Positions 1-2,825 of a stretch of 64,000 bases of DNA are shown piece by piece. A program made the position numbers. Every line of letters begins with the position of its first letter. The first letter of the stretch is position 1. The stretch lies in the NCBI RefSeq assembly GCF_003018255.1, contig NZ_CP027440.1; one strand, 5' to 3'. The DNA is from Escherichia coli (GTDB lineage Bacteria; Pseudomonadota; Gammaproteobacteria; Enterobacterales; Enterobacteriaceae).

Positions 1-2825
1 TCAGTCGCTTTCTCCTGCGACGCAACATGTGACTGCATACCCCAGCCACGCTCCGGTTGATAGAGCGTCGCCCAGATCCACAGGAACGGCCAGATAACAT
101 GCAGAGTAAACAGGCTCACCCAGCCCGCCGTATGAATAGCGTCGGCATGGGGATGATTGCGCTTTTTGGCAATCAGATATGGGATGTCATGTATCGCGAT
201 GATTCCATAAAAAATCACCAGAAAGACGAAGATCAGCACTCCCAACGCGAAATAGTTTAGAAACATATCTGCCTCGGATTCACGTTTATCAGTGTTGTTT
301 TTTGGCTGGCAGCCAGAAGGGAGTCAGGCTGATATTTTGACAATAATCCGGGTTCGCGATTCTCGCCATAACACCAAAGAATAATTTTTAGAGGTGATGA
401 GTTGCTTAGTTACATAACGATTTTATGACGAAGGCATAACATGCTGTAGATCACATCAGGTGAACGCCGTAAGAAAATATCTTGTGATTCAGATCACAAA
501 GATCCAACAAACCACCAAAACAAAAATGTGACATTAGTCACATTTAAATGCCATTTTTAGCGAAAATCGCCGTCTTGTTGCTTTTTTACACAAGCATTTT
601 GTGATGAGCATCACGTCAATTACCTCTCTACCCCCTATATTTATGTGACCCATATCACACAAAAGGCCGTCGACTGGACAGTTAACCGATTCAGTGCCAG
701 ATTTCGCAGTATCTACAAGGTCCGGCTACCTCTGCCGCCACATTAACAAAAAACCTCGGGCTTCCAGCCTGCGCGACAGCAAACATAAGAAGGGGTGTTT
801 TTATGTCATCCGATATTAAGATCAAAGTGCAAAGCTTTGGTCGTTTCCTCAGCAACATGGTGATGCCAAATATCGGCGCGTTTATCGCGTGGGGTATCAT
901 CACCGCGTTATTTATTCCAACAGGGTGGTTACCGAACGAGACGCTGGCGAAGCTGGTCGGGCCGATGATCACTTATCTCCTGCCGCTGCTGATCGGTTAT
1001 ACCGGTGGTAAGCTGGTAGGCGGCGAACGTGGCGGCGTAGTCGGTGCCATCACCACCATGGGCGTTATCGTCGGCGCAGACATGCCGATGTTCCTCGGTT
1101 CTATGATTGCAGGTCCGCTGGGCGGCTGGTGCATTAAGCACTTCGACCGCTGGGTAGACGGTAAGATCAAATCCGGTTTTGAGATGCTGGTGAATAACTT
1201 CTCCGCAGGCATCATCGGGATGATCCTCGCTATTCTGGCATTCCTCGGCATTGGCCCGATTGTTGAAGCCCTGTCCAAAATGCTGGCTGCGGGCGTTAAC
1301 TTCATGGTTGTCCATGACATGCTGCCGCTGGCGTCTATCTTTGTTGAACCGGCGAAAATCCTGTTCCTCAACAACGCCATTAACCACGGTATCTTCTCGC
1401 CGCTGGGCATTCAGCAGTCCCATGAATTGGGTAAATCCATCTTCTTCCTGATTGAAGCTAACCCAGGTCCAGGTATGGGCGTGCTGCTGGCGTACATGTT
1501 CTTTGGTCGTGGCAGTGCTAAACAATCTGCGGGCGGTGCGGCAATCATCCACTTCCTGGGTGGTATCCACGAAATTTACTTCCCGTATGTGTTGATGAAT
1601 CCGCGTCTGATCCTGGCCGTTATCCTCGGCGGTATGACTGGCGTGTTCACGCTGACTATCCTGGGCGGTGGTCTGGTTTCTCCGGCATCTCCGGGTTCTA
1701 TCCTTGCTGTACTGGCGATGACACCAAAAGGTGCTTATTTCGCTAACATCGCAGGTGTGTGTGCGGCGATGGCTGTCTCCTTCGTTGTCTCTGCCATTCT
1801 GCTGAAAACCAGCAAAGTGAAAGAAGAAGATGATATTGAAGCAGCAACTCGTCGTATGCAGGACATGAAAGCTGAGTCTAAAGGTGCGTCTCCGCTGTCT
1901 GCGGGCGATGTGACTAACGACCTGAGCCACGTACGTAAAATCATCGTTGCCTGTGACGCCGGTATGGGTTCCAGTGCGATGGGCGCAGGTGTGCTGCGTA
2001 AGAAAATTCAGGATGCAGGTCTGTCGCAGATTTCGGTCACTAACAGCGCGATCAACAACCTGCCGCCAGATGTGGACCTGGTCATCACTCACCGTGACCT
2101 GACCGAACGCGCTATGCGCCAGGTTCCGCAGGCACAGCATATTTCGCTGACCAACTTCCTCGACAGCGGCTTGTACACCAGCCTGACCGAACGTCTGGTT
2201 GCTGCCCAGCGCCATACTGAAAACGAAGTAAAAGTGAAAGACAGTCTGAAAGACAGCTTTGACGATTCCAGTGCTAACCTGTTCAAGCTAGGCGCGGAGA
2301 ACATCTTCCTCGGTCGCAAAGCGGCCACCAAAGAAGAAGCGATTCGTTTTGCTGGCGAGCAGCTGGTGAAAGGCGGTTACGTTGAGCCAGAATACGTTCA
2401 GGCGATGCTGGATCGTGAAAAACTGACCCCGACTTATCTGGGTGAGTCTATCGCGGTGCCACACGGTACGGTTGAAGCAAAAGATCGCGTACTGAAAACG
2501 GGCGTGGTGTTCTGCCAGTACCCGGAAGGCGTGCGCTTCGGTGAAGAAGAAGATGACATTGCCCGTCTGGTGATTGGTATTGCTGCCCGTAACAACGAGC
2601 ACATTCAGGTTATCACCAGCCTGACCAATGCACTGGATGATGAATCCGTCATCGAGCGTCTGGCACACACCACCAGCGTGGATGAAGTGCTGGAACTGCT
2701 GGCAGGTCGTAAGTAATACAATCTCACCCTCTCCACATGGAGAAGGTGGGGCTTATTGCCTGATGCGCTACGCTTATCAGGCCTACAAAACAAAGCACAG
2801 TTTGTTGAATTTGCACGTTCTTGTA

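Follow-up and report, generated by a model that had tools for sequence, protein, structure and literature searches.

The Five-Site CRP Array Upstream of mtlA in Escherichia coli: Site Positions, Conserved Spacing and Relation to MtlR Repression

Introduction

Our analyses of a 64,000-nucleotide (64 kb) stretch of an Escherichia coli chromosome (hereafter the window) have identified an array of TGTGA-N6-TCACA sequences in the 536 bp spacer between yibI and mtlA, which very probably constitutes a fixed-geometry, five-site cAMP-CRP operator-promoter of the mtlADR operon where repression is exerted by MtlR anchored through CRP. A preliminary description of this DNA had reported four palindromes at 483–659, spaced by 44, 73 and 44 bp, as CRP sites upstream of mtlA. 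Our sequence scan found the coordinates, the spacing, the gene and the factor to be right; the four sites (CRP2–CRP5) are real, and a weak fifth site (CRP1, 440–455) had been overlooked, five sites having been mapped at this operator. The finding is correct and already known: the array has been textbook knowledge since 1995, and a deeper rationale for it was published in July 2026. The sole residual novelty lies in our comparative additions, according to which the whole 44/73/44 arrangement is frozen and not only its 44 bp pairs. The sites, their non-random clustering, their K-12 layout, the identity of MtlR and the Enterobacterales-wide geometry are results of the present analysis.

The mtl Locus and Its CRP Sites

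The array is followed downstream by a cis-linked mtlA-mtlD-mtlR operon that encodes MtlR. The names of the operon's open reading frames are taken from the RefSeq annotation of a strain that is 99.9% identical, and the genes at the locus are as follows:

264–266, minus strand: start codon of yibI; the window opens inside this gene
803–2716, plus strand: mtlA, PTS mannitol EIICBA, 637 aa, 2 aa differences from K-12
3081–4229, plus strand: mtlD, mannitol-1-phosphate 5-dehydrogenase, 3 aa differences from K-12
4229–4816, plus strand: mtlR, encoding the repressor for which CRP pairs serve as docking sites, 0 aa differences from K-12 MtlR

The spacer is matched in 5,404 of the 5,426 complete E. coli genomes, and in strain JNE23-011, where its flanks are annotated as yibI and mtlA-mtlD-mtlR, it is 100% identical. 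The CRP sites that it carries, with their centres given both in the window and relative to the transcription start site (TSS), are:

440–455: CRP1, weak CRP site CATGCTGTAGATCACA, 7/10 core bases; centre 447.5, -262.5
483–498: CRP2, perfect core TGTGATTCAGATCACA, 0 mismatches; centre 490.5, -219.5
527–542: CRP3, perfect core TGTGACATTAGTCACA, 0 mismatches; centre 534.5, -175.5
600–615: CRP4, TGTGATGAGCATCACG, 9/10 core bases, the mismatch being the last base (TCACG); centre 607.5, -102.5
644–659: CRP5, perfect core TGTGACCCATATCACA, 0 mismatches; centre 651.5, -58.5; promoter-proximal and class-I-like

Measured against the two-fold symmetric CRP core, three of these sites thus match at 10/10, one at 9/10 and CRP1 at 7/10. 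CRP2–CRP5 lie 144–320 bp upstream of the mtlA ATG (803) and are separated, centre to centre, by exactly 44, 73 and 44 bp; as the centre of CRP1 is 43 bp upstream of that of CRP2, the full series is 43/44/73/44. The spacing on which MtlR docks (43–46 bp) is found between CRP1 and CRP2 (43), CRP2 and CRP3 (44) and CRP4 and CRP5 (44), and the 73 bp between CRP3 and CRP4 form a non-docking gap. Besides CRP2–CRP5, no further TGTGA-N6-TCACA site with 1 mismatch or less is present in the whole 64 kb. A CRP-like pair with 2 mismatches at 62535/62582 has been taken as chance, its 47 bp distance being beyond the 43–46 bp range.

The alignment of the window spacer with that of K-12 MG1655 is gap-free and contains 13 substitutions, with all five CRP cores the same. 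The two operators share the locus, the 43/44/73/44 series, the promoter, the 5'UTR and an identical MtlR, and they differ in that 7 of the 13 substitutions affect the N6 centres of CRP3–CRP5. Relative to K-12, CRP3 of the window gains perfect 9 bp arms, and in CRP5 the favoured T at position 6 is replaced by C. The 22 bp form of CRP3 (AAATGTGACATTAGTCACATTT, 524–545), whose inverted arms are perfect over these 9 bp, reads AAATGTGA-N6-TCACATTT.

Published Evidence for CRP and MtlR Binding

In its passages on the mtl operator, the article of Lee et al. (NAR, July 2026) summarises and extends the work of Ramseier and Saier (1995), and it places five CRP sites at -262.5, -219.5, -175.5, -102.5 and -58.5 from the S1-mapped TSS, with spacings of 43/44/73/44 and a core match of CRP1 that is also 7/10 (PMC13421365). 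Setting the centre of CRP5 (651.5) to -58.5 puts the TSS of the window at 710 and makes the four palindromes CRP2–CRP5, whose mapped cores they match base for base. These sites are bound by CRP in EMSA, CRP2 and CRP3 being occupied in preference to the poorly occupied CRP1 (PMC13421365). In the chromosome, mutation of CRP2, CRP4 or CRP5 leads to the loss of mtl expression and of growth on mannitol, the loss of CRP3 has mild consequences, that of CRP1 has none, and CRP1 is reported as dispensable (PMC13421365). The yibI/mtlA spacer also ranked second in clone abundance in a genomic SELEX for CRP (PMC3105977), and CRP ChIP-seq of ETEC H10407 gave two peaks here, with CRP1/CRP2 and CRP4/CRP5 as the listed sites (PMC4287617). 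That work lists CRP2 and CRP1 in reverse complement, the latter (TGTGATCTACAGCATG) under a peak, together with CRP5 and CRP4 in their K-12 form (PMC4287617). The reading of the palindromes as CRP sites, which would have fallen had CRP failed to bind them, is hence borne out on K-12 and ETEC alleles by EMSA, genomic SELEX and ChIP-seq.

The work of Lee et al. has also clarified the role of the spacing. MtlR is without a DNA-binding domain and supershifts only DNA with two CRP dimers 43–46 bp apart; it ignores both the 73 bp pair and the 34 bp pair of malK, and binds either after its spacing is reset to 44 bp (PMC13421365). The spacers between the mtl CRP sites share no similarity, and arbitrary spacers function in EMSA (PMC13421365). 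The release of MtlR is attributed to its sequestration at the membrane by dephosphorylated EII-Mtl, and the CRP-MtlR complex has been shown for K-12, Salmonella and Vibrio cholerae (PMC13421365). For the K-12 allele, others have demonstrated by experiment CRP binding, spacing-dependent recruitment of MtlR and the essentiality of CRP2, CRP4 and CRP5. The binding and mechanism data pertain to the K-12, ETEC and Salmonella alleles, from which the window differs at 7 N6 positions in CRP3–CRP5, and we infer that its N6 variants behave like the K-12 alleles.

Conservation of the 44/73/44 Geometry

The phylogenetic distribution of the array was examined by a scan based on MtlA with one genome per species, which yielded 80 loci from the Enterobacterales, Vibrionales, Aeromonadales, Pasteurellales, Orbales, Firmicutes, Fusobacteria and one alphaproteobacterium; cores with at most 2 mismatches were sought in the 500 bp preceding each start codon. 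The exact 44/73/44 series is present in 42 of 81 mtlA upstream regions (79 other loci and K-12 being included in the comparison), and it spans almost every Enterobacterales genus sampled (viz. Escherichia, Citrobacter, Enterobacter, Leclercia, Cedecea, Serratia, Pantoea, Erwinia, Yersinia, Rahnella, Pectobacterium, Hafnia, and Budvicia). Near variants of the series are found in Providencia (44/72/44), Tolumonas (45/74/43), Aeromonas (45/73/44) and one Photobacterium (45/73/43). The 117/43 or 44/116 spacings of the vibrios represent the same frame with one of the four sites under the detection threshold, and the Pasteurellales and Gilliamella retain one 44 bp pair. Among the Firmicutes, Fusobacteria and alphaproteobacterial controls, 0–1 weak sites were found in the 500 bp upstream, and the 44/73/44 series in none.

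In a gap-free profile of 40 species lined up on CRP2, the pentamer cores reach about 2 bits and the N6 centres about 0–0.4 bits, the latter being nearly free save for a preference for T at position 6 and for A at position 11. Most of the spacer sequence cannot be aligned, and CRP5 lies anywhere from 145 to 190 bp from the ATG. The lack of indels between the sites, despite the divergence of the spacers and the variable distance from CRP5 to the ATG, indicates that a real geometric constraint acts on the array. The 73 bp gap amounts to nearly seven helical turns; though MtlR makes no use of it, its length varies as little as that of the 44 bp spacings.

The Promoter Region and the 5' Untranslated Region

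Downstream of CRP5, the following elements are recognised, the promoter hexamers being our own assignments by sequence reading:

675–680, plus strand: -35 hexamer TGGACA of mtlAp, which fits the published TSS
680–695: candidate Cra (FruR)-like site, with half-site CGATTCAG at 687–694 in the promoter spacer
695–703, plus strand: extended -10, TGcCAGATT (weak -10 CAGATT at 698–703)
710, plus strand: predicted transcription start (651.5 + 58.5, from the published site coordinates and S1-mapped TSS)
710–802, plus strand: ultra-conserved 5'UTR of mtlA, 93 nt long, which contains two small hairpins and AAGGGG as a strong Shine-Dalgarno sequence

The half-site CGATTCAG at 687–694 resembles the Cra consensus, and its exact position is presumptive. 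The putative promoter reads TGGACA-17-TGcCAGATT, with CRP5 at -58.5 from the literature TSS, and it is conserved: CTGGACAG is retained at the -35 region in the Enterobacteriaceae, and GTG..AGATT at the -10, where other families have GTGATAGAGT in the same place. A generic sigma-70 scan returned no promoter on the plus strand, and the -35 and extended -10 have been assigned instead from conservation and the published TSS. By ChIP-exo, Cra has been located around the -10 and TSS of mtlA, where it overrides CRP (PMC5888115), a placement that agrees with the Cra-like half-site.

The 5'UTR shows 0 differences in 93 positions between K-12 and E. albertii, as against 23% in the region upstream of CRP1, and in an alignment of 23 Enterobacteriaceae one of its hairpins shows compensatory changes in other genera. 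No Rfam family matched positions 1–900 at gathering thresholds. A 26-codon open reading frame on the minus strand from 370 (conserved CGCCAT) was considered and dropped because its homologue in Leclercia stops after 8 codons.

Proposed Mechanism

On the strength of the published K-12 work and the layout described above, the array would operate as follows. At high cAMP, CRP dimers would occupy CRP2–CRP5, and CRP5 at -58.5 would act in a class-I-like manner on a weak promoter with an extended -10; CRP2 and CRP4 would be needed too, CRP3 would contribute, and CRP1 would serve as a weak extra site. The two 44 bp pairs (CRP2/CRP3 and CRP4/CRP5) would form a protein platform for the MtlR dimer. Without mannitol, this dimer, the product of the last gene of the operon, would bridge CRP dimers 43–46 bp apart and thereby repress transcription; when mannitol is present, MtlR would be held at the membrane by dephosphorylated EII-Mtl (MtlA). 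Additional repression is expected from Cra and Fis. This published account is in keeping with all that we observed, and none of our results speaks against it. The density of sites had earlier been described as in line with the known strong cAMP-CRP dependence of the operon. This view stands insofar as CRP is required, but it needs to be widened, as the 44 bp spacing is also the docking geometry of MtlR.

Alternative Explanations

The palindromes could in principle be inverted repeats that arose by chance, or else hairpins or elements akin to terminators, with no role for CRP. A scan for terminator-like sequences does flag 524–545 on the minus strand (a 9 bp stem followed by T-rich sequence), and, taken alone, the number of sites with 1 mismatch or less across the window lacks significance: 4 are seen against 1.99 expected, and 16 of 100 shuffles reach 4 (P about 0.15). 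While this window-wide count is unremarkable alone, the exactness and the clustering of the sites are remarkable. Exact cores number 3 against 0.079 expected per 64 kb, with at least 3 in 0 of 1000 first-order Markov simulations, and the densest 177 bp stretch in these simulations held 2 sites at most against the 4 observed. Conserved cores with free centres are, moreover, the signature of a protein site, unlike that of a hairpin, and direct binding of CRP is on record (EMSA, genomic SELEX and ChIP-seq). Refuted by the evidence of binding and by the pattern of conservation, the chance or hairpin reading retains a practically negligible probability.

Two further readings accept the sites as CRP sites and dispute what they are for. 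According to one, they are redundant, additive CRP activators that secure a strong cAMP dependence, and their spacing has no function of its own; all four are indeed good CRP sites, mtl expression needs CRP, and several of the sites are individually essential. Additive activation needs no fixed distances, yet 44/73/44 is kept free of indels across the Enterobacterales, and the recruitment of MtlR is tied to 43–46 bp and can be transplanted to malK in EMSA by a change of spacing alone (PMC13421365). The spacing-swap EMSAs largely refute the additive-only reading, and we regard it as very unlikely. The other reading, that CRP1 and CRP2, and perhaps CRP3, mainly serve the divergent yibIH rather than mtlA, draws on the divergent nature of the spacer (the yibI start codon lies at 264–266 on the minus strand), on a ChIP-seq table that gives the CRP1/CRP2 peak to yibI (PMC4287617), and on the SELEX authors' placing of both yibI and mtlA downstream of the site (PMC3105977). 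Against it, mutation of CRP2 in the chromosome kills mtl expression and growth on mannitol (PMC13421365), and the distances of CRP2/CRP3 to CRP4/CRP5 are fixed even where the sequence upstream of CRP2 is unrelated to that of E. coli; such a main role is therefore extremely unlikely, and a secondary effect of CRP on yibI may occur. An internal promoter served by CRP2 or CRP3 at a class I/II distance was also considered and rejected, there being no credible -10/-35 in 520–570. The reading of the array as the CRP operator-promoter of mtlADR with CRP-anchored MtlR is the one that we retain.

Conserved Spacer Elements and Variable N6 Centres

Outside the CRP sites, the profile of 40 species and the alignments reveal several further conserved elements in the spacer:

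474–479: AAAATA, conserved, non-CRP
506–511: AACAAA, 4 bp from the CRP2/CRP3 midpoint and 18 bp from the CRP2 centre, with core-level conservation in the 40 species
575–591: TGT-N2-T7-ACAC element (T7-ACAC at 579–591), conserved, in the 73 bp gap
631–635: run of five C (five G in other families), conserved, near the CRP4/CRP5 midpoint

The TGT-N2-T7-ACAC element is possibly a Fis site or an intrinsic bend. A comparison by eye of AACAAA and T7-ACAC with the consensuses of IHF, Fis, marbox, TyrR, LexA and ArcA gave no convincing fit. Since arbitrary spacers work in EMSA (PMC13421365), these conserved motifs may tune something outside the in vitro assay.

The N6 centres present the opposite picture within E. 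coli. Among 9 strains, 10 of the 30 N6 positions are segregating, versus 26 of 456 in the other spacer sequence and 1 of 50 in the cores (Fisher p = 1.5e-5); CRP2 is identical in 9/9 of the E. coli compared, and the hot spots are the centres of CRP3–CRP5. The window departs from K-12 at 7 of 24 N6 positions, versus 7.5% of the positions in mtlADR that are 4-fold degenerate (binomial p = 0.0014), a rate about 4 times that of synonymous sites for the centres of CRP3–CRP5 within E. coli, in a test that is post hoc and built on small numbers, where CCC/TTG at 649–651 may be one event. This rate could reflect the tuning of affinity, or else a mutational hot spot local to the DNA that CRP binds.

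The published CRP/MtlR model leaves the strict 73 bp gap and the conservation of the mid-spacer motifs unexplained, together with the quickly changing N6 centres and the ultra-conserved 5'UTR. Across the Enterobacterales, the gap, AACAAA, the C5/G5 run and T7-ACAC are kept to roughly the same degree as the CRP cores. Tentatively, and with the odds rather against it, the model may be incomplete, the gap and the motifs belonging to a higher-order nucleoprotein particle with an extra DNA contact at the midpoints, and affinity tuning or a hot spot accounting for the N6 centres. MtlR itself, the alpha-CTD of RNA polymerase, and Fis or another factor would fit as candidates for such contacts at the pair midpoints.

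Related Systems and Significance

The arrangement at mtl recalls the CytR-CRP complexes (e.g., at deoP2), where a repressor also contacts two DNA-bound CRP dimers at tandem sites and the activator serves as a scaffold. CytR, a member of the LacI family, binds DNA through a domain of its own, and its operator, made of TGCAA-type repeats, lies between CRP sites about 52–53 bp apart. MtlR differs from it in that it is without a DNA-binding domain and needs 43–46 bp. In the 28 bp spacers of the window there are no CytR-type TGCAA repeats, and the sites are spaced by 44 bp. The malK-lamB/malE region, which also requires MalT, is likewise a multi-CRP (class III) divergent catabolic region with four CRP sites. 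Its adjacent sites are 34 bp apart and recruit MtlR only when this distance is lengthened to 44 bp, and the CytR-CRP complexes have been cited as a precedent (PMC13421365). The mtl operators of Salmonella and Vibrio also carry adjacent CRP pairs 43–44 bp apart upstream of mtlA (PMC13421365), and in our own scan 43/44 bp pairs occur in Vibrio, Photobacterium, Aeromonas, Tolumonas, the Pasteurellales and Gilliamella. Some of the Vibrio MtlR proteins are reported to be unable to form the ternary complex (PMC13421365).

The recovery of a validated array with the right geometry from a reading of raw sequence gives this case value as a positive control. With five mapped sites, versus four at malK, the mtl operator ranks with the densest CRP arrays described in E. 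coli (PMC13421365), and it is now a paradigm for a repressor without a DNA-binding domain that is anchored by means of an activator. The frozen 44/73/44 geometry and the conserved spacer motifs provide direct targets for mutagenesis in this system.

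Sequence variation and conservation in the mtlA operator

The spacer between yibI and mtlA carries an array of sites for cAMP-CRP, of which CRP2-CRP5 (483-498, 527-542, 600-615 and 644-659) have the form TGTGA-N6-TCACA (with one mismatch in CRP4). Within E. coli, the 6-bp N6 centres of these sites vary far more than either the neighbouring spacer DNA or synonymous sites. Among 9 E. coli strains, 10 of 30 N6 positions are segregating as against 26 of 456 elsewhere in the spacer, and the window differs from the reference strain K-12 at 7 of 24 N6 positions as against 7.5% of 4-fold sites, the test being post hoc. 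The TGTGA and TCACA cores are invariant in the same E. coli comparison, as is the N6 of CRP2. The N6 centres of the other three sites are as follows:

532-537, N6 of CRP3
605-610, N6 of CRP4
649-654, N6 of CRP5

Tuning could account for the variability of these centres, as could a mutational hot spot or chance. The operator also contains motifs, other than CRP sites, that are conserved at fixed positions over ~40 species of Enterobacterales:

474-479, AAAATA
506-511, AACAAA
575-591, TGT-N2-T7-ACAC
631-635, a C5/G5 run

Of these, AACAAA and the C/G run lie close to the midpoints of the two pairs of CRP sites spaced 44 bp apart (CRP2/CRP3 and CRP4/CRP5).

The mtlA promoter, 5'UTR and mtlA-mtlD spacer

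Downstream of the array, a site resembling those of Cra/FruR was assigned by eye, and it overlaps the promoter spacer and the TG of the extended -10:

680-695, putative Cra/FruR-like site, with half-site CGATTCAG at 687-694

The placement of this candidate site is consistent with the published Cra ChIP-exo signal at the mtlA -10/TSS (PMC5888115). The mtlA 5'UTR (710-802) is ultra-conserved, with 0 differences in 93 positions between E. coli and E. albertii compared with 23% upstream of the weak site CRP1. Two small hairpins are present in this 5'UTR:

~724-738, hairpin 1, CGGC..GCCG
~756-770, hairpin 2, CGGGC-UUCCA-GCCUG

Pseudocitrobacter and Pseudescherichia carry compensatory changes that support hairpin 2; an Rfam search of the 5'UTR returned 0 matches. 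Further along the operon, the mtlA-mtlD spacer (2717-3080) is 364 bp long in the window versus 229 bp in K-12, and contains a tandem duplication of a REP/BIME-containing unit of ~135 bp.

Other loci in the window

Two further loci were identified:

~6240-12220, + strand, a DUF3251 gene and a YadA-like trimeric autotransporter gene (5.25 kb), between yibL and lldP
40098-40136, - strand, JUMPstart element (RF01707; Rfam, 55 bits)

The autotransporter gene is internally repetitive, with stretches at 8.3-9.5 kb that match one another at 81-92% identity. The JUMPstart element precedes the waaQ (rfaQ) core-LPS operon, where it is expected.

An element beyond yicC

The window is collinear with E. coli JNE23-011 (99.9%) to the end of yicC; beyond that point the window carries an element, 14.5 kb or longer (49446-64000), that JNE23-011 lacks. 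No tRNA gene was found at the junction after yicC. The element includes the following features:

49562-50914, integrase-sized ORF
54908-54995, 55370-55458 and 55831-55918, + strand, three C4 antisense RNA copies (RF01695; Rfam, 72-78 bits)

The C4 copies are in tandem (period ~462 bp) and overlap three consecutive Icd-like ORFs; the matching regions of other strains have two. Because matching E. coli regions are annotated with tyrosine integrase, DNA primase, Icd-like, Rha, AntA/AntB and GIY-YIG proteins, the sequence from 49446 to 64000 is a P4-like satellite or integrative element.
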